DNA of 40,713 bases. Origin: a virus (taxonomy: Duplodnaviria > Heunggongvirae > Uroviricota > Caudoviricetes). The translations under genes and the position numbers were made by a program. Within the stretch, counting starts at the first letter, position 1. Every line of letters begins with the position of its first letter. Location: the IMG/VR virus record IMGVR_UViG_2671180360_000017, one strand, 5' to 3'. Positions 1-40,713 of this stretch are shown here, piece after piece. The notes beneath the pieces were generated by a model, which had not been told where the DNA came from, ran no database searches, and was given only the letters and a program-made list of their open reading frames with translations.

Positions 1-852
1 TTAACCCGCGTAAGCTGCCAGCATTTCCTGCGCCGCCAGTTTACCCAACGCATTCGCTGCAAAAGGACTGTCGCCGGTGAGAACTTTACGGTCCTTATGT
101 ACTCGCCCGGTGATGTCGTCATTAATAATGTTCATGCCCATTTTCTTCAGCTCTTCGCCGAAGTACCAGGTGAGATGACCCGGCATATAGCCTATCTCTG
201 GCGTTTGTTTGTCTGCGGCGTCTGGGAATGCGCAAATGGAATAACCATTCAGTGGGTTATCGCCGTGGCGAAGCGCCAGAAAAGCCGCCGGGCCGTGGCA
301 AAGGGAGATAACAAAACGGTCATTTTTGATTGCCCACTGCAAAGCAGCAGCTACGTCCTGGCTTTCTGGTAAACCAATAAGTGCGCCATGACCACCAGGA
401 ACAAAGATTGCTGCATATTCGCTATCAGCGTTGAGGCTGGCGACAACATCCGCGAGTTTCTTCGGATTGCGGAACAACGATTTATGTTGCTCAAAGAATG
501 GCATTACTTTTTCATCTTTGTGCGGCATAGCCCAGTATTCAAACTTGGTCATCAGACCGGAAATGGTCGCCACTTCGAATTCGAAACCTGCAGCATGGAG
601 ATGATACAACGGCAGCAACGTTTCAATCGGATGGTTACCGGTCGAGAACAGTTTTCCGTTATCGGTTGGCAAATAACGTTCGTCCGCGGCGATCACCAGA
701 ATTTTATGCTTACCGCGATACGGTTTTGGATAGTCCACGCCATCAAGATCAGAGACGGGACTGGTATATTGGCTAAGCGAATATTCTGAAGGGAAGAATG
801 CATTATCTTCAGCAATATCGACCTGCGGATTTTTACTTGTTTGAACAGTCAT
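1..852 (-). CDS. hchA: Glyoxalase III / Hsp31 chaperone (DJ-1/PfpI family)
   Basis: 283 aa ORF, complete, stop codon at window positions 1-3; sequence recognised as E. coli HchA with the catalytic Cys in the LCHGP motif; host GC content. Confidence 0.9.
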   Translation of the reverse strand: MTVQTSKNPQVDIAEDNAFFPSEYSLSQYTSPVSDLDGVDYPKPYRGKHKILVIAADERYLPTDNGKLFSTGNHPIETLLPLYHLHAAGFEFEVATISGLMTKFEYWAMPHKDEKVMPFFEQHKSLFRNPKKLADVVASLNADSEYAAIFVPGGHGALIGLPESQDVAAALQWAIKNDRFVISLCHGPAAFLALRHGDNPLNGYSICAFPDAADKQTPEIGYMPGHLTWYFGEELKKMGMNIINDDITGRVHKDRKVLTGDSPFAANALGKLAAQEMLAAYAG

Positions 853-1363
853 AGTGTATTCCTTATTGTTGCTTAGTTAGGGTAGTCACTATATTTGCGA
901 CTGAGCTGGTCGCTATTTTTAACCAGTCTGGAAAATTGAGTCAATATATCGAAAGCGGTAGTCGGCGGGTGTAAGTATGTAATGATGATGCTGCACTGGT
1001 GTTGAATATTATTCACGCCAAATTTTCCTTATTGAGCAACGTCGTCGCAAGTGGCCTCAATGATTTTAGACCATTATCAAAGGTACGGGGCGGCGGGGAG
1101 AGATTTAGTGCTGTGAAATATTGTGGTACTGATGAATATTTATATCGCGGATTGGTAGAGAAAAGATTATTTCATGCACTATTTTTGCAAATATTTCTAT
1201 ATGGGAAGCGTGTTTGTTACGGGGTAATTCATCAGAATGTGCATTTGGGGTGTTGGCTGGAAGAGTCGCTGGTAGATGTTATTGCGGCAGGAGGGGCAGG
1301 GTAAGGTGCTGTATCGATATGCTTTGGCAATTGCGTGTGCCGCAGATGGAGATGAAATGCCAA

Positions 1364-1401
1364 TAAAAAAAGCCTGAGTTCGATGAGGGACGAACTCAGG
1401 C
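1364..1401 (-). terminator. Rho-independent terminator downstream of the porin fragment
   Basis: GC-rich inverted repeat gcctgagttcg / cgaactcaggc with an adjacent A/T run, located between the porin stop (1445) and hchA. Confidence 0.5.
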
Positions 1402-1444
1402 TAGTGTTATGTTTTACAGTAACACGCCGCGGCGCGTTGGCTGA

Positions 1445-2452
1445 TTAGAACTGGTAGACGATACCAACTGCAAACTGGTCATCAGTTGCGGCATCGGTAA
1501 TCGCTGCATCGTCTTTATCCAGCAGGTTAAATTTGTATGCTGTGTAGACGTTCATGTTCTTATTGAAGTAGTACCAGGTACCAACTTCGATATAATTTAC
1601 GCGGTCAGCATCAACACCTTTATGTCCATTACGAGCATAAAGATCTTTGCCTTTGGAATATACGTAGCCTAAAGACGGACGTAAACCGAAGTCGAACTGA
1701 TACTGTACAACAGCTTCAAAGTTTTGGGTTTTATTTGCAAAATGATCATTAGCCAAAACGGTCATGTTGCGGGTTTCACCGTACATCATTGCTGCATAGA
1801 TATTATTTGCATCATACTTGGCTGCTAATGACCACACTTCAGCGTTATCACCGTAGCCGTCACCAGCTTGTTCATTAGTACGATCAGATTTGCTATATGC
1901 ACCTACAAAACCAAAACCTTCGATGTTGTAGTCTACAGACAACGCATAGCCATCACCGTTTTGTTTAGTAACGCCACGATTGCTGTTCTTACCTTGATAT
2001 TGCACAGCAAAATTCAGACCATCAACCAGACCAAAGAAATCAGAGTTACGGTAGGTTGCAACACCGTTGGTACGACCGTTCATGAAGTTGTCAGCGGAAG
2101 CCCAGGAATCACCACCCCATTCAACTAACATATCGGTATAAGCTGCGGCATCATAAGCAACACCGTAGTTACGACCATAGTCGAAAGATCCTAACTCGTT
2201 ATATTTCAAACCTGCGAAGGTTAAACGGGTTTTTTCCTGATTAGAGCCTTCGGGCTTGCTGGCGTCGAGGTTGTATTCAAACTGACCAAAACCAGTCAGT
2301 TCGCTGGTGATTTGGGTTTCACCTTTAACACCGAAACGAGCATAGGAGGTATCTTCGTTTTCGCTGTTATTATCATCAGTATTTGACCAGATGCGTTCGC
2401 CAACCATCTTGCCGTAGAAATCAACTTTATTGCCATTTATGTAAACGGGTTA
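1445..2452 (-). pseudogene. yedS: OmpC/OmpF-family porin, 3' portion (mature domain) separated from its promoter and signal peptide by the prophage
   Basis: 320 aa ORF ending in the porin C-terminal motif GIVYQF; reading frame continues upstream to mature N-terminus residues [10 protein letters not shown] and then hits a stop; signal-peptide part found at 39694-39781; symbol inferred from hchA / yedR neighbourhood. Confidence 0.75.
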
Positions 2453-2528
2453 ATGAAAACAATAAGTTATAGTAAAAACAATAAGTTGGGTTGGTGGTCA
2501 GTGGTGGTTATTACGGGGTAATGCCAAC

Positions 2529-2551
2529 CGCTGCCGCCACTTTGTCGCCAT
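2529..2551 (+). repeat. 23 bp direct repeat, int-proximal copy (att core or Int arm-type site)
   Basis: cgctgccgccactttgtcgccat; matches 39609-39631 with one mismatch. Confidence 0.6.
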
Positions 2552-2585
2552 TTGGAACAACCCGGTTGTGCTGCCAATTTGCATG

Positions 2586-2918
2586 CTAACGGATAGAACC
2601 ATCAGGATATAAGTACACGCCACCCTCTAGATACATTGGCTCACCATCTTCAACTGCAATATCTTGATAAAGTTCAGCCAGTTCATTAGATTCATTTTTT
2701 ACAAGATTATATGTATCAACATCATACCCAAGGATTTTTAACTCATCATCTGAGGTTGCTCCTTGTTTTTGCTTAAGCGCAACAATATCAAAAATCCACT
2801 TTTTGCCATCTTTAACGTAGTACGCCCCAGAATCATAACCACGATCGTCAAGTACTTTTTCAAATCCCATCGATAATGCTTTTTTGACAGTATGTTTTTT
2901 TACGGTAATGATAGCCAT
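2586..2918 (-). CDS. Hypothetical protein (110 aa), AT-rich cargo gene between the prophage end and int
   Basis: Uninterrupted 110 aa ORF in AT-rich DNA, weak RBS; no recognisable motif. Confidence 0.45.
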   Translation of the reverse strand: MAIITVKKHTVKKALSMGFEKVLDDRGYDSGAYYVKDGKKWIFDIVALKQKQGATSDDELKILGYDVDTYNLVKNESNELAELYQDIAVEDGEPMYLEGGVYLYPDGSIR

Positions 2919-3026
2919 GTAATCTCTTAATATATTGAATAAAAGTGAACTTATATACTGATAAAAGTTTACTCTGACGCAATTAACTCAGCTAGTGGGG
3001 GATGATGTTATTTTTGCACCAGTAGA

Positions 3027-4043
3027 TCACACTTCTAGCGTTGCGAGGGGGTTGAATCTCAGAGCCGTCTCAAGATGATCGGGTGCTAAATGGGCATAGC
3101 GCATAGTCATTTTTATATCGTGATGTCCGAGGATTTTTTGCAAAGCAAGGATATTTCCACCCGACATCATGAAGTGCGCCGCAAACGTATGGCGCAGAAC
3201 GTGTGTCAGTTGACCGCGAGGGAGCACGATAGACGTTTTTTCCATCACGGATAAAAATTGAAAATAGCAGTCTGTAAAGAAATTGAACCCATCAAGCGCC
3301 ATGATCTCTTCGTAAAGCTCTTTACTGATAGGGATGCTTCTGTTTTTCTTCCCCTTCGTTCTTACAAAGGTAATTCGGTATTTGGTCACTTGCGAGCGGG
3401 TAAGATTTATTGCTTCTCGCCAGCGTGCGCCTGTGCTTAGGCATATCTTGACTACCAGTGCCAGAATTGGGTCCTGACGTTTGCAATCAGCCAGCAGTTC
3501 AACAATCTGCTCATGGGTAAGCCATGCCATCTCTTTTTCTGCGATGGTGAATTTTCGCATGTTCTCCAGTGGGTTCGGATACGACCATTCGCCCAGGCGG
3601 GATAGTTCGCTAAAAACACTACTTAGATAGCTTTGCTCCAGGTTAATGGTGACCGGGCTTGCTCCTTTCTTCCATTTCTCGCTGAAGTAGATCTCACCTG
3701 TCAGGCGTTTATCTCGATAGTGGGCAAACATTTTAGAGGTTAGATCAGTTGCAAGGGGATTGCCCAGAGCGTCAACCATCAACAGCAGTTTGTCATAGAC
3801 ATGCTGCCCAGCTGTCAGAGATTTACCATGTAGTTTGAACCATAGCTCAATCACGTCTTTCAATGTCCGACGATCCACTGATTCGCCCAGCCAGGGCTTT
3901 GCTTCGGTTTCTTCCATCGTGTGACGCTCAAAAGCCAGAGCTTCGCCTTTGGTGGCGAATTGTTTACGCACACGACGTCCACTACGTCCGGCGGGGTAAC
4001 ATTCGCAAAGCCATTTTCCTGTGGTGAGTTTTCGTACTGCCAT
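3027..4043 (-). CDS. int: Tyrosine integrase (P2 Int-like)
   Basis: Tyrosine-recombinase C-terminal motifs (HVLRHTFA ... RYAHL); ORF extends to 4121 but the start at MAVRKLTTGKW (4043) gives about 338 aa, matching P2 Int length; position next to the att end. Confidence 0.85.
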   Translation of the reverse strand: MAVRKLTTGKWLCECYPAGRSGRRVRKQFATKGEALAFERHTMEETEAKPWLGESVDRRTLKDVIELWFKLHGKSLTAGQHVYDKLLLMVDALGNPLATDLTSKMFAHYRDKRLTGEIYFSEKWKKGASPVTINLEQSYLSSVFSELSRLGEWSYPNPLENMRKFTIAEKEMAWLTHEQIVELLADCKRQDPILALVVKICLSTGARWREAINLTRSQVTKYRITFVRTKGKKNRSIPISKELYEEIMALDGFNFFTDCYFQFLSVMEKTSIVLPRGQLTHVLRHTFAAHFMMSGGNILALQKILGHHDIKMTMRYAHLAPDHLETALRFNPLATLEV

Positions 4044-4229
4044 AAAAAATGCCCTCCAGTAGAGAGCATTTTTACTGTATGTATAACCAGTGTCAATGTA
4101 TGAAATCCTGCGACCATACATCTCACTGAAGCCATAATGAAGTTAGCTATTTTTTGCTATGTGAGTATGTGACTTTTGCGGTTAGCCTGCGGCTCATTGT
4201 TATATTAGGCGCAGATATAAAAGCAAAAT

Positions 4230-4421
4230 TTATCGCGAGTTTTTAGTACAGATTTTTTTTGATTTACTAATAGTTCCATCATTGCAAACGAACTTTCCAT
4301 CGGAGGTACAGTGAGAGACACCTCCCTTTTTCCCAGAACAAGGATAATTTTTAGCATAGGTAGTTAGTGGGTTTAATAACAAAGAGCATGATAAAACCAC
4401 AAAAAATACCTTACCAAGCAT
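4230..4421 (-). CDS. Small secreted cysteine-rich protein (63 aa precursor) encoded between cI and int
   Basis: Strong RBS (gggaggaa) 4 nt upstream of ATG; N-terminal hydrophobic signal-like segment then about 40 residues with 4-5 Cys; AT-rich; same strand as and immediately downstream of cI. Confidence 0.5.
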
Positions 4422-4436
4422 AGTTTCCTCCCGGTA

Positions 4437-5012
4437 TTACCTAACGTACTTAATTGTTAAACTTATAATTTTCCCAATTATTTCAACATCTTCTATCTTG
4501 CACTCGAAGGCTCTGTTTCCACCCTCGACGAAGATTCTTCCACCGGGTAAACGAGTAATGTCACGGATCGTTATTTCGCCATCAATACTTATTACCCATT
4601 TACCATCACGTATATCATCAAATTCCTTATCACAAATAAATTCAGAATTATTATCTGTGATTACAAAAAGATTCTTGAATGCCGACGGTAGAAATTCTCT
4701 ATCGAAAATATAAAAACCGTCTTCACACAAGGCCCCATCAGATAATACATATTTAGCAACTTCCATAGTATTTGTATTACCTGAAGTTTGCTTTGAACCA
4801 TGCCCGGTTGTGAGCCAATTAAGCGAGGTGCCTGTTTCAAGGGCGCACTGGATTACCCATTCTGCTGGGAATGAGTCACGCATGTAGCGTGTGGCGAGTG
4901 TACTTTTAGAGATTCCTAAATGATCGCACAACGCCTGTCGAGTCTTGAATCCATAAGCTTCTACCATGCGCTCTATAGCGCCTCGTCCGCCTTTCTCCAA
5001 ATTCATGGTCAC
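4437..5012 (-). CDS. cI: Immunity repressor, phage 186 CI-like
   Basis: 191 aa (186 CI is about 192 aa), N-terminal HTH region, divergent from the apl/cII operon, upstream of int. Confidence 0.75.
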   Translation of the reverse strand: MTMNLEKGGRGAIERMVEAYGFKTRQALCDHLGISKSTLATRYMRDSFPAEWVIQCALETGTSLNWLTTGHGSKQTSGNTNTMEVAKYVLSDGALCEDGFYIFDREFLPSAFKNLFVITDNNSEFICDKEFDDIRDGKWVISIDGEITIRDITRLPGGRIFVEGGNRAFECKIEDVEIIGKIISLTIKYVR

Positions 5013-5030
5013 TCCAAGTGAACTTTTATC

Positions 5031-5059
5031 TTGACGATTTCACTGTGCGATCGTATGTT
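5031..5059 (+). promoter_or_regulatory. Candidate early lytic promoter (pR-like) in the cI / apl divergent switch region
   Basis: TTGACG, 17 bp spacer, TATGTT upstream of apl-like gene; the 5013-5131 interval is the only place for the lysis-lysogeny switch. Confidence 0.35.
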
Positions 5060-5131
5060 TATGGTGTTCACAAAATACAAACGATCCGTATTCGTCCTGA
5101 TTAATCATCATTAAACGAGGAATGTTGCATC

Positions 5132-5353
5132 ATGAGACCTAACATTTCAATCACTCTTACCACCCCTCATGTGACTATTGAACGCTATAGCGAGCTGACA
5201 GGGCTATCCATCGATACCATCAATGACATGTTGGCTGATGGACGCCTTATCCGTCACCGACTGCGCAAAGATAAAAAACGCGAAAAAGTGATGATCAACA
5301 TAGCAGCAATGACCGTTGATGCGCTTTCAGAATGCAATCTAAACCTTAATTAG
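5132..5353 (+). CDS. Apl/Cox-like excisionase / lytic switch regulator
   Basis: 73 aa ORF, first gene of the rightward early operon, HTH-like segment; position equals 186 apl / P2 cox. Confidence 0.55.
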
Positions 5354-5385
5354 TTCGATTCTGAAATACATCAGAGGCATTGACC

Positions 5386-5895
5386 ATGTTTGATTACCAA
5401 GTTTCCAAACATCCACATTTTGATGAAGCCTGTCGTGCATTCGCATTGCGCCACAACCTGGTGCAACTGGCAGAACGTGCTGGCATGAATGTGCAGATTC
5501 TGCGGAACAAGTTGAACCCAGCGCAACCTCATTTATTAACCGCACCAGAAATCTGGCTGCTTACCGATCTGACTGAAGATTCAACGCTGGTAGATGGTTT
5601 TCTGGCTCAGATTCACTGCCTGCCATGCGTACCGATTAATGAGGTGGCAAAAGAGAAACTGCCACATTACGTCATGAGTGCAACCGCAGAGATCGGGCGT
5701 GTTGCTGCAGGTGCGGTATCTGGCGATGTAAAAACCAGTGCAGGTCGTCGTGATGCTATCAGCAGCATTAACTCTGTAACACGACTGATGGCGTTGGCTG
5801 CTGTTTCATTGCAGGCCCGTTTACAGGCTAACCCTGCGATGGCGAGTGCAGTTGATACCGTGACTGGCCTCGGTGCTTCATTCGGTTTGCTGTGA
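5386..5895 (+). CDS. cII: CII-like lysogeny establishment regulator (186 CII-like)
   Basis: 169 aa, same length as 186 CII, N-terminal region recognisably similar from memory; synteny after apl. Confidence 0.65.
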
Positions 5896-10787: not shown

Positions 10788-10923
10788 TAGGTTTCGTTTG
10801 TAATGAGTCATGTTTTTTGAGTCCGATAGTAGACAGCTAGAGGGATAAATGATTAATAGATAGATTAAACATAGTGATGGGCGTAAAATCGCGCGCATTT
10901 TATTGGCAACGGATCTGAACTCA

Positions 10924-11817
10924 ATGGCGGATAAGACTCAATCAGTAAGTATTGTGTATCAAGGCAAAGCTCTCGACGATCATAAGATGGATATTCTTTC
11001 GTTTGCGAAAAGTTTGCAGGGGCTAGGTGAGGCTATCTACTCTGCAAATGAGATTGTAAACGGAGGGCGAGACATTGAAGTTAACGTTGACGCTGAATTG
11101 ATAGCCGGTTCCTTTGGGTTTGATATTGAGGTTGTACAACATCTAGCTAATGCTAAAGATGTTGTACAAATTTTAGGTTTGTCAGCCATTCCTTTAGCCG
11201 TTGGCGGTGCTACAGTTTTAGAGGTTCTCAAGAAGCTTAACGGGCGTAAGATCGACATAGTCGAGAAAGCTAACGGTAGTGACAAAGTTAAGCTGAAAGT
11301 CGATGGTGAAGAGATTGTTTGCTCTGAAGATGTCGAAAAAATCGTTAATGCCCCAGAGATTCGTAAGGCTGTTGACGCGTTTGTCAGACAGCCTCTGTTA
11401 CAAGATGGTATCGACAATTTTGTGGTAAAAAAATCGCGCACCTCTAAGAAAGAAATCCTCAAAATTCATAAAGATGAGGCAGAAGAGTTTAAGTCGCCAA
11501 AAGTTCTCTTTGAAACCAAAGAAGAAGTTGACGAATTTGAAACAACCGTGACATTCGTTTCGGCGCATACTGACAAAAAAAGTGGCTGGCGTGTTGAGTT
11601 TGGCGGTGAAAAGCGCAATGTCAGAATGGAAGATAATGAGTTCATCAAGCTTGTTACTGGACCAGACGCCCCCAAAATTTTTGGCGAATTGTTTGCTGTG
11701 AAGATGAAGAAAATTGTGAAAGATTCCGGTGGCCAGGTAGACGAAAAGTTATCGATCATCAAAGTGGGTCGACACTTTGCCGCCAAAGATAGAAAAATAA
11801 AACCTGATGCGGATTAA
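10924..11817 (+). CDS. Hypothetical soluble protein (297 aa from ATG 10924; 304 aa if the TTG at 10903 is used), first gene of the AT-rich cargo operon
   Basis: Long uninterrupted ORF in AT-rich DNA between dinI-like gene and the cos region; highly charged K/E/D-rich; no recognisable motif. Confidence 0.6.
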   Translation: MADKTQSVSIVYQGKALDDHKMDILSFAKSLQGLGEAIYSANEIVNGGRDIEVNVDAELIAGSFGFDIEVVQHLANAKDVVQILGLSAIPLAVGGATVLEVLKKLNGRKIDIVEKANGSDKVKLKVDGEEIVCSEDVEKIVNAPEIRKAVDAFVRQPLLQDGIDNFVVKKSRTSKKEILKIHKDEAEEFKSPKVLFETKEEVDEFETTVTFVSAHTDKKSGWRVEFGGEKRNVRMEDNEFIKLVTGPDAPKIFGELFAVKMKKIVKDSGGQVDEKLSIIKVGRHFAAKDRKIKPDAD

Positions 11818-12762: not shown

Positions 12763-14031
12763 ATGGAAATTTTTGATACGAATGATATCTTTGGGCTCTC
12801 AAGAGATTTGCCACTTAATTACATTGAAAGACCTGATGTTGATTTCAAACTTAAACAGGAATTACAAGCAAAGAAACATATTGTTATTTACGGCAGTTCA
12901 AAGCAGGGTAAGACTTGCGTAAGAAAACACTGTATTAATTCTGATGATTATATTTTGGTGCAGTGTTCGAATCGTTCTGATGTATCTGAATTGAATGCAA
13001 GTATTTTAAAAAGAGCTGGATTCGAAATAACTCAGTCTACCAAGAAAGGTATTACGGGGAAAAATAAAATAATCGCATCAATAAAAACTTCTATTTTGGG
13101 TTTTGTGGCGAGTGCCGGAGGCGAGATCGAAGATACGAAATCTCATGAACAAGTAACCGCGCCTTTAGAAATTGATGTTGATGATGTTAATGATGTTATA
13201 GCGGCTTTAAAATCTATAAATTTCAAGAAGATTATCGTTCTTGAGGATTTTCATTATATGCCTTTCGAAACTCAAAGAGATTTTTCGATCGCATTAAAAG
13301 CCTTTCATGAAACATCAAGCATTATTTTTGTAATTGTTGGAGTTTGGCTAGAAGATAATCGGCTCATTGTTTACAATGGTGACTTAACTGGCAGGATTAT
13401 TTCTGTTAACGCAGACAAATGGCAAGATTCTGAACTGGAGATGGCAATTGATAAAGGAGGTTTACTCCTTAACATTGATTTTGATCCAACTTTCAAAGCA
13501 GATGTAGTAACACACTGTCTCAATAGTATTTATTTAGTGCAAGAAGCATGTAGGCGTGCGTGTATTGAATGCGGAATATCAGAGACTCAGCAAACAAAAA
13601 GAACTATTGGAGCTGGTTTGGATGGAAAGGATATCATTGCAAAAATTGTTAATGACCAATCGGCTCGTTACAATTCTTTCCTTATTAATTTTTCAGATGG
13701 ATTTCAAGATACTGAACTTCAAATGCATAAATGGATTTTATATCCTGTCCTTTCATCAACCATTAGTGAACTTGAATTAGGTTTGAAATTTAAAGATATA
13801 AGGGCAATATTACAAAGTGTACATCCAAGAGGGGAGAAGTTAAACCTGGGTAATGTTACTCAGTCGTTACAATCAACGGCGTCTTTGCAAATAAAGAAAA
13901 ATATAATGCCTATTATTTTGGATTATGACCAAACAAATAGGAAACTGAATGTTGTTGATAAAGGCTTCCTAATATGGTTGCAACATCAAGATATCAAAGA
14001 TCTAAAGGATGATTTGGAGTTGCCAAATTAA
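12763..14031 (+). CDS. P-loop NTPase of unassigned family (422 aa), orphan cargo gene
   Basis: Walker A GSSKQGKT and Walker B-like IIVLEDFH; AT-rich; convergent with Q and separated from it by an inverted repeat. Confidence 0.7.
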   Translation: MEIFDTNDIFGLSRDLPLNYIERPDVDFKLKQELQAKKHIVIYGSSKQGKTCVRKHCINSDDYILVQCSNRSDVSELNASILKRAGFEITQSTKKGITGKNKIIASIKTSILGFVASAGGEIEDTKSHEQVTAPLEIDVDDVNDVIAALKSINFKKIIVLEDFHYMPFETQRDFSIALKAFHETSSIIFVIVGVWLEDNRLIVYNGDLTGRIISVNADKWQDSELEMAIDKGGLLLNIDFDPTFKADVVTHCLNSIYLVQEACRRACIECGISETQQTKRTIGAGLDGKDIIAKIVNDQSARYNSFLINFSDGFQDTELQMHKWILYPVLSSTISELELGLKFKDIRAILQSVHPRGEKLNLGNVTQSLQSTASLQIKKNIMPIILDYDQTNRKLNVVDKGFLIWLQHQDIKDLKDDLELPN

Positions 14032-22863: not shown

Positions 22864-24732
22864 TTAATTTTCAATGCTTTGCTTTAATTTATCTATTGCG
22901 GGAGTTAAACAATCATTTATGAGCTCATCGATTTGTAATGATAATATATTTGAGTTTATTTGAGTTTTCTTTTCAATTAGCTTTCTAATTAGCTCACGGT
23001 GGAAAAAACGCTCTGCAGAAAGCTCTTTTAGATAAGGGGAGTTGTTGTATCGGTTTTTTATAGCATAGCCAAAGAAATGCATCTCGGTTGAGTCTACCAG
23101 TATTTTTGTTAGTTGTTCAGCATCACCAAAATAAAGAACTGGTTTGTCGTGAAATGAATAAATATCTTTGTTGTTGAAATTTAGATGTGCGTAATATTCA
23201 TGATTTCCGGCCTGTATTAATTTGAATATCTTTTGAGCGTCTTGGCTAAGTTGATATGCAATTAACACATTTTTCTTTTGTTCTATGTAATTAACAAGCT
23301 CCTTGAATTCCCTAGTTTCTTTGCAATGAAAAGTTAATCCTCCCCATCGCTCATCCTTAATGTCTTCATCAAAAATTTCATAACTAGTTTGTATCATTCC
23401 TTTTTCTGCTAAAATATCAACAGCAGAGTGGGCTAAGTTTGTTAAATAGTGTTCGTTGATGGGTTTTATGTGTTCTCTGGATAAATGAAGTAATAATCCG
23501 TAAATATGCTTAAGAACATGCTCGTTCAATATTTCAAAATTAATAAGCGTATGAAGTGTTGAATTGTAATTTTCCTCAAATTCTGTGTATTTTAATCGAT
23601 CATAATTCCAAAGTTGTGTCCATGGCTCAATTGTTTTATTAGAAACACTGACAAATGTTATTAATTCAGATATTATTTTTTCTTGATTGATTTTCTGATT
23701 GTCAATTATATCGATCCAGGTATCCTCGTCTAAGATTAAATTTGACAAATAAGTTGTACCATATTTTTCAATTAAATTGGATGTGTATTTATTATCATCA
23801 TCTATTTTATATGTTAACAAGTCAGAAACGGTTCGTTTTATTTTATTAGATTCAAAATAGAGTATAAAATGTAATTGATATAATCTGAGTGTCAAATCTG
23901 AATTTTGCTGAAACTGTGCTGGTAATATTTTGAATATTCTTTCAAAAAAAGAAATTTGCCTTTCAATTAATCTAATGTTATTACACTCTGAAAGAGTGAG
24001 TAAGCTCTCAATATTTTTTATGTTCAGAATGGTGTTGAGTTCGCTAGTTATATTTTTTAGAAAATATTCGTAGGCGTGAGAATGTTGAGGTTGATATTTG
24101 AAAGTTATACCTATAACTTTTTCTTTTGCATCTAAATAAATACCATCATGATTTTTATTTCTAGCGGGGTTTAATATTTCTCTCTCATTGGCGATAATCA
24201 AAACCTTGCATTCTTTTTCTTCAACGAAATTATTTATATAACCAAATATAGAATTCCAATCTAATTCGCAGCGTTCAAGATCATCAAATATCAATATGGT
24301 GTTTTCTGGTGAGTAGTAAAAGTCTTTAATACTTACGTTGGGTAGTTCTGGGGAGCCCTCTACACTTGTAACGAATGAATCACTTAAATCAATCTTAAGT
24401 GTGCCTTTAATTAGTGCCTTAGTTAGTGTGCCAGCAAGCAACATGCCTTTAGATGAAAGGAAGGGATGCATTTGCTTGAAAATTATTTCGTCAATTTGTT
24501 CGGTGGATTTTATTCCATATAATGAGATCATTAATGGCTTAACTTCCCCTTTTAGTGATTCTTCATTCATTAATTTACGGACAAACCATGTTTTCCCGCT
24601 TCCCCATTCGCCGTCAATCATTACTGCGAAATTAGGGGATTTTTCAAGACCCACTAAATAATTAAGATATGAGGTTAGCTCTTCATTGTAATTCATTGGA
24701 TTGTAAGACCCTTCATACAATTTGAAAATCAC
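22864..24732 (-). CDS. KAP-family P-loop NTPase (622 aa), antisense cargo gene between S and V
   Basis: Walker A GEWGSGKT (KAP-type GxWGxGKT) and Walker B ILIFDDLE; strongly AT-rich; opposite strand to the flanking late genes; alternative start at Met 13 (24696). Confidence 0.75.
   Translation of the reverse strand: MIFKLYEGSYNPMNYNEELTSYLNYLVGLEKSPNFAVMIDGEWGSGKTWFVRKLMNEESLKGEVKPLMISLYGIKSTEQIDEIIFKQMHPFLSSKGMLLAGTLTKALIKGTLKIDLSDSFVTSVEGSPELPNVSIKDFYYSPENTILIFDDLERCELDWNSIFGYINNFVEEKECKVLIIANEREILNPARNKNHDGIYLDAKEKVIGITFKYQPQHSHAYEYFLKNITSELNTILNIKNIESLLTLSECNNIRLIERQISFFERIFKILPAQFQQNSDLTLRLYQLHFILYFESNKIKRTVSDLLTYKIDDDNKYTSNLIEKYGTTYLSNLILDEDTWIDIIDNQKINQEKIISELITFVSVSNKTIEPWTQLWNYDRLKYTEFEENYNSTLHTLINFEILNEHVLKHIYGLLLHLSREHIKPINEHYLTNLAHSAVDILAEKGMIQTSYEIFDEDIKDERWGGLTFHCKETREFKELVNYIEQKKNVLIAYQLSQDAQKIFKLIQAGNHEYYAHLNFNNKDIYSFHDKPVLYFGDAEQLTKILVDSTEMHFFGYAIKNRYNNSPYLKELSAERFFHRELIRKLIEKKTQINSNILSLQIDELINDCLTPAIDKLKQSIEN
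24702..24719. promoter_or_regulatory. Ogr-type late-promoter site (TGT-N12-ACA) for the V operon (P_V)
   Basis: tgtaagacccttcataca about 45 bp upstream of the V start; lies within the first codons of the KAP ORF if its first ATG is used. Confidence 0.45.
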
Positions 24733-39693: not shown

Positions 39694-39781
39694 ACCCATC
39701 TTTATTGTAAATTTCAGCCGCATTTGCTGCGCCAGCAACTAATAACGCCGGGACCAGCATTGCCAGAACTTTTCTTTTCAT
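39694..39781 (-). pseudogene. yedS: Porin 5' fragment (start codon, signal peptide, first mature residues) separated from the rest of the gene by the prophage
   Basis: Minus-strand translation [29 protein letters not shown], then divergence into prophage DNA and a stop after four codons. Confidence 0.75.
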
Positions 39782-40347
39782 TATGTATTCCCTTGTGATT
39801 ATAATCTTCATGAATATATCAATAAGTGCCGTTATCCAAAAAAAAGCACATTTGGATACTATTCTATGAAGTTCATTTTATTTTAAAGATTACATGTAAC
39901 AAATGTATTTAAAAGATTTCAAAATGTTTCTAATCTATTTAATATAATTCAGGATTATGAATTCTAAATATAAATATTCATGAAAATTATAAATGTATAT
40001 CAATATGTTATGAGTTGAGCGGAAGCATAGGGGGTATCAATGATTGTTGCGCCAAACGGCTGGTGTGATCACGCGCACATTAATGAAGGCATAAAAAAAA
40101 GCCGGCATCATGCCGGCCCAAAAAATATAAACAAGACGATAAAAGGCTAATAACGGAGGCATCATGACACAGAAAAATAAAAAGGTATAATTGTATTCAG
40201 TGCTAATATATTGATTAAATGAATTAATAAAGCCGATCTCAAAGATAAATAAAATCGCTCAAAACGATTTTTCCTGTATTCACTGCCGTTGCGCAAAAAT
40301 TATCTATTTGTTCAAAAAATGAGTGAGTCTTGACTGGCTCATCCAAT

Positions 40348-40713
40348 GTGGAAAAATGTGACTTTTATCACATAATAGTGCTAAGTCTGAATTTTCCGGG
40401 TTATCTCAAAATGGAATACGGTTCGACAAAGATGGAAGAGAGACTCTCTCGCAGCCCTGGTGGCAAACTGGCTTTGTGGGCTTTCTATACATGGTGTGGC
40501 TATTTCGTCTGGGCAATGGCGCGTTACATCTGGGTGATGAGCCGGATCCCCGATGCCCCGGTGTCGGGATTTGAAAGCGATTTAGGCTCTACCGCGGGAA
40601 AGTGGTTAGGGGCACTGGTCGGATTTTTATTTATGGCTCTGGTCGGGGCATTGTTAGGCAGCATTGCCTGGTACACCCGACCTCGTCCCGCACGTAGCAG
40701 ACGCTATGAATAA
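40348..40713 (+). CDS. yedR: Inner-membrane protein YedR
   Basis: A GTG start at 40348 gives 121 aa, the length I recall for E. coli YedR; two hydrophobic helices; stop at the window end. Confidence 0.6.
   Translation: MEKCDFYHIIVLSLNFPGYLKMEYGSTKMEERLSRSPGGKLALWAFYTWCGYFVWAMARYIWVMSRIPDAPVSGFESDLGSTAGKWLGALVGFLFMALVGALLGSIAWYTRPRPARSRRYE

Follow-up and report, generated by a model that had tools for sequence, protein, structure and literature searches.

The stretch of virus DNA analysed here (the window, 40,713 nt in full length; IMG/VR record IMGVR_UViG_2671180360_000017, Caudoviricetes) contains a 63-codon open reading frame (ORF) on its minus strand, between the repressor gene cI and the integrase gene int. 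With its stop codon the ORF occupies positions 4230-4421, the ATG lying at 4421-4419 and the stop at 4232-4230, and the Shine-Dalgarno sequence GGAGG at 4431-4427 precedes the ATG with a spacing of 5 nt. We are confident that the ORF functions as a gene in a prophage of the 186-like kind (Peduoviridae) and that it belongs to the YdcA family (PF27300, NF007463, PHROG 6000). A preliminary description of the same DNA had reported a 63-codon ORF with a near-consensus ribosome-binding site between the repressor gene and int, encoding a mature peptide of roughly 40 residues with 4-5 cysteines. Both points agree with our reading, in which the mature part has 40 residues and four cysteines and the whole protein has five, the additional one being located in the leader. 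The features of the locus are listed below, with pN denoting the proportion of non-synonymous differences and GC the G+C content.

4230..4421, minus strand: YdcA-family gene, product identical to RefSeq WP_001321204.1, with matches to NF007463, phrog_6000 and PF27300
4353..4421, minus strand: predicted signal-peptide coding region, residues 1-23, hydrophobic, with A-x-A motif and pN of 0.45-0.63
4233..4352, minus strand: coding region of the mature 40-residue domain, with four invariant cysteines, a net charge of +7 and low pN
4427..4431, minus strand: Shine-Dalgarno sequence GGAGG, read directly from the sequence
4437..5006, minus strand: 186-type CI repressor gene of the same operon, from Pfam matches (RefSeq coding sequence of 570 nt)
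3027..4043, minus strand: integrase gene, from Pfam matches (RefSeq coding sequence of 1017 nt)
4044..4229, minus strand: spacer of 186 nt separating the YdcA gene from int, structured, with an RNA fold of -53.7 kcal/mol, z = -3.4 against shuffled sequences
4104..4787, minus strand: low-GC mosaic block (C-terminal half of cI, YdcA gene, upstream part of the spacer), from BLAST breakpoints and GC
5007..5131, no strand assigned: divergent switch region between cI and the apl-like gene, with a pR-like TTGACG-17-TATGTT at 5031-5059 on the plus strand from a promoter scan

The assignment to the YdcA family is based on several labels. The window protein scored 116.1 bits on NCBIfam NF007463 (PRK10040.1-2; cut-off 93) over profile positions 1-58 of 58 and matched phrog_6000 with E = 4.6e-34. 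Pfam PF27300, 'YdcA', is the precomputed label of the protein cluster to which it belongs (P0001, members 97-100% identical). RefSeq WP_001321204.1 is named either 'YdcA family protein' or 'hypothetical protein', for example in REL606 and BL21(DE3), and exactly this protein is encoded in BL21(DE3), REL606 and ATCC 8739, under the locus tags ECD_RS23140 and ECB_RS23350 in the first two. All invariant columns of the family (P27, C28, S29, K32, G33, G34, C38, F44, C46, D48, G49, S52, S54, K55 and C58) are found in the window protein, which also agrees with the family motif PCSGxKGG ... FxCxDGxxSxSK ... C and its four conserved cysteines. A local Pfam scan of the ORF returned only a sub-threshold match to GULLO2, PF27300 being newer than the Pfam copy used. 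The UniRef label 'Conjugal transfer protein' carried by the cluster could be traced to no evidence, and the 'ydcA' of the Neisseria gonococcal island resembles the family in name only.

By these matches the peptide is not a novel one; it is a member of a widespread, catalogued family (PF27300, PRK10040). The cluster that holds it in a public protein collection comprises 355 sequences on at least 1000 contigs, a profile search gave 453 family representatives at 50% clustering, and scans located relatives on 505 IMG/VR contigs and in 229 stretches of species-representative genomes. The DNA of the ORF was found in 632 of 5426 complete Escherichia coli genomes (about 12%), and in 628 of these the match covered 80% or more of the query; the ORF was intact in all 80 of the best IMG/VR loci. 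Homologues also occur on plasmids of Acinetobacter, Psychrobacter and Rhizobium, and a chromosomal copy exists in E. coli K-12. A megablast of the cI/ORF region against phage records gave a match for the integrase only. In the literature searched we found neither a functional study of YdcA or WP_001321204 nor a paper on a gene between cI and int in 186-like phages, nor transcript, proteome or phenotype data for the gene.

The protein comprises a leader and a small basic domain. In the leader, an n-region with Lys4 is followed by a hydrophobic core at residues 5-16 and a TYA|K junction. Across the family, a hydrophobic stretch lies just upstream of the YdcA domain in 189 of 193 proteins, and alanine predominates at positions -7 and -5 relative to the first cysteine, giving an A-x-A motif. 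From this layout of n-, h- and c-regions and the family A-x-A pattern, the leader is predicted to be a Sec signal peptide cleaved after Ala23 (TYA); because it is variable yet hydrophobic and carries A-x-A ahead of the domain, the cleaving enzyme would be signal peptidase I. The mature part has a mass of 4.27 kDa and a pI of 9.6, with nine Lys and Arg residues against two Asp and Glu and a net charge of +7, the median for the YdcA domain being +3. AlphaFold2 placed a helix at residues 3-15, and its separate model of the mature part is a beta-hairpin with a predicted local distance difference test score (pLDDT) of 81.5. A lipoprotein reading of Cys12 was rejected, as its VLSC context lies only 11 residues from the N-terminus and homologues have Ile or Val at position -1 or no cysteine at this place. 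A lipobox of the Cor/Llp kind, with its invariant +1 cysteine, is not present in the window protein.

The two parts of the protein also evolve differently. When compared with orthologues in the same slot from Yersinia, Buttiauxella, Haemophilus phage HP2 and Iodobacter, the mature part showed pN of 0.10-0.21 with the proportion of synonymous differences (pS) saturated at 0.74-0.96, whereas the leader diverged fast (pN 0.45-0.63) and kept its hydrophobicity. A second E. coli allele class, with 93% nucleotide identity, differs by 11 synonymous and two non-synonymous changes, and both of the latter lie beside the cleavage site. These values place the mature part under strong purifying selection.

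The neighbouring genes show this to be the immunity region of a phage of the 186-like type within the Peduoviridae. The upstream gene encodes a 186-type CI repressor (Pfam Phage_CI_repr and Phage_CI_C) and the downstream gene a P2/186-type integrase (Pfam Int_N and Phage_integrase), and on the opposite strand lie an apl/cox-like gene, cII (Phage_CP76), fil and replication genes. The cI stop codon at 4439-4437 is separated from the ORF by 15 nt (4422-4436), and int starts at 4043 on the same strand, 186 nt further downstream. Given the short gap, and since a scan detected no terminator-like site between cI and the YdcA gene, the latter should be co-transcribed with cI in the lysogen. By analogy with 186, this transcription would start from pL and pE, and the equivalent of pL, as the driver of cI and the YdcA gene, can be provisionally placed by its position in the switch region at 5007-5131. 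In the spacer, a 13-bp hairpin with a U-run (4044-4073) lies directly before the int AUG and includes the int Shine-Dalgarno sequence; the 60-nt int leader (4044-4103) is common to sister phages, and a promoter-like TTGACA-17-AAAAAT is found at 4096-4068 on the minus strand. An Rfam scan of positions 2400-5400 detected no RNA family. Together with the promoter-like site, the hairpin may act as a terminator or as a translational mask of int, which would separate expression of cI and the YdcA gene from that of int. If it terminates the maintenance transcript or masks int, the YdcA gene would be the last efficiently expressed gene of that transcript.

Comparison with related phages showed that the gene does not belong to a fixed gene order. 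In 186 the cI stop overlaps the int start with no gene between them, and in P2 the 115-bp gap between C and int is geneless; the statement in the preliminary description that P2 and 186 lack a gene here was correct. From 2433 onward the window is 99.65% identical to the REL606 prophage. With vB_EcoM-813R9 of Escherichia and 4LV2017 of Klebsiella it shares only 2433-2555 and 3037-4103, the latter covering int and the 60-nt leader, and similarity to vB_EcoM-813R9 picks up again at 4787, within cI. The BLAST breakpoints against these two phages fall at 4101/4103 and 4787, and the GC is 0.32-0.385 across 4100-4800 versus 0.45-0.52 in int and the early genes. Since the sister phages carry other sequence between sharp breakpoints, block 4104-4787 is a mosaic unit. 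In the same slot, vB_EcoM-813R9 encodes a 558-residue protein that matches the PD-Lambda-1 defence model with E = 3e-120, and Klebsiella 4LV2017 a 349-residue protein whose function is not known. The repressor gene is itself mosaic: its N-terminal helix-turn-helix (HTH) half (about 4787-5006) has 82% DNA identity to vB_EcoM-813R9 and its C-terminal half is replaced with the cargo gene, so that the unit of exchange cuts through cI.

On this evidence the YdcA gene is a horizontally exchanged cargo gene, or moron, in the cI-int slot and outside the phage core. The preliminary description had gone further and proposed a candidate lysogenic-conversion factor, for instance one acting in periplasmic superinfection exclusion or as a receptor-masking peptide. 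In favour of this, a cargo gene does lie in the cI-int unit, on an exchangeable low-GC block, in a slot that a sister phage fills with PD-Lambda-1, and the order of repressor and YdcA recurs in several genera; the peptide itself, by contrast, is one of a widespread known family. It is reasonable to read the gene as a lysogen-expressed accessory gene, because it is a genuine gene in the cI-int unit that is absent from 186 and P2, lies in an exchangeable block and a slot also used by PD-Lambda-1, and shows recurrent synteny.

The prophage carries other cargo genes as well. A 110-residue ORF at 2586-2918 on the minus strand (GC 0.335-0.36), between int and the prophage end and hence in the 'integrase-att' slot, has no family match; it is present in the REL606/BL21 prophage as WP_000974872.1 and absent from the EC26 prophage, 813R9 and 4LV2017 despite common flanking att/int sequences. 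The integrase-att interval of P2-like phages is reported to hold a further 3% of their cargo (PMC13586616). PADLOC candidate models PDC-S42 and PDC-S59 were matched in the gpA-portal hotspot (10903-11817 and 12763-14031, both on the plus strand), and PDC-S49, a KAP-family NTPase at 22864-24732 on the minus strand, lies on the opposite strand within the tail gene cluster. The prophage of about 37 kb interrupts a porin gene between hchA and drpB (window positions 1445-2445 and 39696-40713), and the empty-site genome FDAARGOS_1059 joins window positions 1-2445 to 39696-40713 with an overlap of about 16 bp. A search for an exact att direct repeat of 12 bp or longer between the prophage ends gave none. 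This insertion site was found in only 2 of the 5426 complete E. coli genomes; in REL606, BL21, QA-1986 630 and EC26 the same or a closely related prophage sits beside rcdA instead.

Comparative genomics of the cI-int interval, which the preliminary description had suggested, revealed that a YdcA gene repeatedly follows the repressor gene in P2-like prophages from different genera. Marker genes of P2-like prophages are present in about 20 of the 80 species-level loci with a YdcA relative. One Escherichia species and three from Yersinia have the order CI, YdcA, int. In Buttiauxella a 133-residue ORF stands between CI and YdcA and no int was detected, and in Iodobacter and two Comamonas species an XRE-type repressor is followed by YdcA. 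Haemophilus phages HP2 and S2 contain an unannotated 60-codon homologue (L001, 2920-3102), located before orf1(S) and int, and in HP2 its start codon overlaps the cI stop. Other positions also occur: in Oceanisphaera, Acinetobacter and Aquabacterium the YdcA gene lies upstream of the gpD tail genes, and in Moraxella and Acinetobacter phages it lies in the tail module ahead of the tape-measure gene, a classic moron position. Among the 140 immediate neighbours of YdcA genes, the only recurrent families were phage integrase, CI and HTH domains, and no recurrent partner gene was found besides these phage repressors and integrases.

Fusion proteins give an indication of what the domain may act on. 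In seven of the 33 long representatives of the family a signal peptide is followed by the YdcA domain, a linker and a nuclease, the partner being Endonuclease_NS in four, SNase in one, a phospholipase D (PLD)-type nuclease in one and a weak HNH-like motif in one. They include the SNase fusion P0116 (L173, 4001-4669), P0207 (L178, 5001-5417), the Endonuclease_NS fusion P0176, P0157 and P0172. The nucleases belong to three, possibly four, unrelated folds that have only their substrate in common. A P2-like prophage harbours the gene for the SNase fusion, next to gpD/gpU and the tape measure. The gene for the HNH-like fusion overlaps with the stop codon of an HTH repressor gene from a phage, the same position as that of the stand-alone gene in the window. 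In HP2 a secreted protein with an oligonucleotide/oligosaccharide-binding fold (tRNA_anti-like) is encoded directly after the YdcA gene. Tandem proteins with two and three YdcA domains also exist, and some family members contain a second small basic cysteine module, CTGPRGGxYC. Two-domain members of this last kind (CxC...CTGPRGGxYC...G.KSY) are found at L009 780-1118 (Pseudomonas phage Y12) and in P0056-P0062, P0112 and P0160; two of them weakly match Pfam PBCV_basic_adap.

Dis2 of Legionella (Lpg0823, Protein Data Bank (PDB) entry 7MUC chain AN) was the best PDB match of the family profile, with E = 1e-4 when the leader was included. With the mature part only, E rose to 0.04, level with chance matches to cysteine-rich regions of LDL-receptor and lysozyme, so that the lower value is partly driven by the signal peptide. 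Dis2 was also the best Foldseek match of two AlphaFold2 models (probabilities 0.96 and 0.77, query-normalised template modelling score of 0.62, 36-39% identity). A Dis2-like protein carries PF27300, and the probability from hhalign was 83%; P0228 and P0229 also belong to this comparison. When the PDB was searched with phmmer for matches to the two-lobe relatives P0082 and P0080, the outcome was nothing or a marginal E of 0.037. From sequence and model together, homology of YdcA to a Dis2 lobe at the level of the domain is probable, and Dis2 resembles a YdcA (PF27300) domain duplicated in tandem. In publications, Dis2 is described as Legionella-specific and without structural relatives (PMC8486379, PMC12716638). 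The nuclease fusions and the link to Dis2 point to a module that binds DNA, other polyanions or the envelope, and not specifically to receptor masking.

Taken together, we propose the following explanation of the window gene as a cargo YdcA gene for a periplasmic binder of DNA or polyanions, and as a whole we give it about as much chance of being right as of being wrong. The gene would be co-transcribed with the repressor in the lysogen and translated by means of the strong ribosome-binding site ahead of it; its product would be exported through the Sec pathway, with cleavage after Ala23. In the periplasm, the product would be a 40-residue, very basic (+7) beta-hairpin mini-protein, probably with two disulfides. 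The YdcA domain would then be a compact extracytoplasmic module that binds DNA or polyanions at the inner face of the envelope, which phages and bacteria would have attached to secreted nucleases of unrelated folds. Alone in the lysogen, it may bind or obstruct foreign DNA in the periplasm, be it that of a superinfecting phage or conjugative or transforming DNA, or alternatively recruit a host periplasmic nuclease to the incoming DNA; in both cases it would protect the resident prophage together with its host. The specific part of this explanation, in which the module binds DNA or polyanions in the periplasm and makes it harder for foreign DNA to enter, we put forward tentatively. We favour it among the possible functions because the nuclease fusions, the high positive charge and the occurrence in slots that otherwise hold defence genes are all accounted for by it.

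Several points weigh against this explanation. Expression, export, disulfides, ligand and phenotype of the window gene are all inferred. The nuclease fusions are equally compatible with a tethering domain that localises nucleases. A simple DNA-trapping model is weakened by the fact that phage DNA on its way across the periplasm is usually shielded in the tail tube. A PADLOC-DB 2.0 search with the window protein gave no defence-family match at E <= 0.01, and many YdcA members lie in non-phage chromosomal contexts without a common partner gene. The chromosomal ydcA of K-12 has been linked only to organic-acid stress (PMC7642389). Dis2, finally, apparently the one probable relative with a solved structure, binds proteins (DotK, DotC and DotD) under the outer membrane and not DNA, and is dispensable (PMC8486379, PMC12716638).

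In the leading alternative, YdcA would be an envelope-docking adaptor like Dis2 that binds no DNA and alters a trans-envelope machine or a receptor, by masking a receptor or by interfering with pili, secretion systems or the penetration of phage tails. Both the profile hidden Markov model (HMM) and Foldseek rank Dis2 first among PDB matches, PF27300 is found on a Dis2-like protein with the hhalign probability given above, and Dis2 sits on the Dot/Icm cap in contact with DotK, DotC and DotD, on the side that faces the outer membrane (PMC12716638). A tether of this kind would account for the fusions to periplasmic nucleases as well, and it comes nearer to the receptor-masking idea of the preliminary description. 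Dis2, however, is two-lobed with five disulfides and needs Legionella-specific partners that are missing from E. coli, and no conserved envelope partner gene lies beside YdcA genes; we consider this alternative possible though improbable.

Somewhat less probable still is a role as a host-fitness factor that would support the envelope or the acid and organic-acid tolerance of the lysogen in the manner of chromosomal ydcA, a conversion unrelated to exclusion. Deletion of ydcA sensitised E. coli W to 3-hydroxypropionate, ydcA was reported to be induced at pH 5 under YdcI (PMC7642389), and outside phages many chromosomes and plasmids carry a member of the family. This phenotype comes from one study without a mechanism, however, and leaves both the nuclease fusions and the marked preference for cargo slots in lysogeny operons and tail modules unexplained; moreover, a second copy would add little because the host has its own ydcA.

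A secreted cationic antimicrobial peptide or bacteriocin directed at competitors is very improbable. The small size, the charge of +7, the richness in disulfides and the signal peptide give the protein a superficial likeness to defensins, but in Gram-negative bacteria Sec export reaches only as far as the periplasm, the gene has no neighbour for immunity, maturation or outer-membrane export, family members occur singly in many genomes including K-12, and the fusion partners are enzymes and not toxin-immunity pairs. A chance or decayed ORF without function, conceivable for a short frame in AT-rich DNA where ORFs arise easily, is already refuted by conservation, that is by the HMM score above cut-off, the 453 representatives, the extreme purifying selection, the intact frames in 80 of 80 IMG/VR loci and the matches to 80% or more of the query in 628 of 632 E. 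coli genomes, and its probability is negligible.

Returning to the DNA-targeting explanation, its broadest form would make YdcA an unrecognised extracytoplasmic DNA-targeting module of lysogeny operons that intercepts foreign phage, conjugative or transforming DNA in the periplasm, either as a single domain, as in the window and HP2, or joined to a nuclease of the SNase, Endonuclease_NS, PLD or HNH-like kind. It would represent a new class of exclusion or defence factor; the domain, in duplicate, would have been taken into the Dot/Icm system as Dis2, which would then not be Legionella-specific. We regard this generalisation as unlikely, at about the level of the stress-factor role. The gene, the YdcA family and the cargo hotspots of P2-like phages are already on record. 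Three points appear not to have been described in the literature searched: the synteny of repressor and YdcA that recurs between genera, the unannotated gene of HP2/S2 being one case; the fusions to nucleases; and the link to Dis2. A predicted-exported protein of 40 residues is nearly invariant across gamma-, beta- and alpha-proteobacteria, and unrelated temperate phages repeatedly carry it in an operon that stays on in lysogens, which argues for strong selection for a function. The window gene is directly testable in BL21 or REL606. If the lead given by the nuclease fusions is true, it would reveal a periplasmic layer of defence against incoming DNA and give a function to E. coli ydcA, PHROG 6000 and Legionella Dis2; if the product is only a stress or housekeeping peptide, the gene would be an ordinary moron.

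Among known systems, P1 Sim, T4 Sp, the Cor/Llp lipoproteins and HK97 gp15 are small exported phage proteins that block DNA entry at the envelope. The relation of the window protein to them is a functional analogy only, with no homology detected and no lipobox. The likeness to Dis2 lies in the domain itself, as each Dis2 lobe contains the motif CCxxxGG(V/I)xxC...G(R/L)(L/V)VCN(N/D)GxxS, similar to that of the YdcA domain. The two proteins differ in architecture: Dis2 consists of two lobes in tandem with five disulfides and is built into a secretion machine, whereas the window protein is a single free domain with four cysteines, and no type IV secretion genes were found in the window.

With the cargo genes of P2-like phages (old, tin and fun(Z) of P2, orf69 of 186, and PD-Lambda-1) the YdcA gene has no sequence relationship; it resembles them in its variable slot, low GC, exchange between phages and prophage-expressible position (PMC13586616). 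The closest comparison is with YdcA of K-12 (b1419), a 57-residue predicted periplasmic protein of which the function is not known (PMC11340327). It contains the same domain, xxPCSGxKGG(V/I)SHC...GKFVCNDG(S/T)ISxSKKxC, with the four invariant cysteines after a signal peptide. The window protein, with 63 residues and likewise predicted to be periplasmic, is about 51% identical to it over the full length, the signal peptides being unrelated; NF007462, an equivalog of 57 residues and probably the one for the K-12 type, gives it 68 bits, against 116 bits for its own NF007463. K-12 ydcA lies at a chromosomal locus beside rydC and cybB, whereas the window gene represents a prophage-borne subfamily located after cI.

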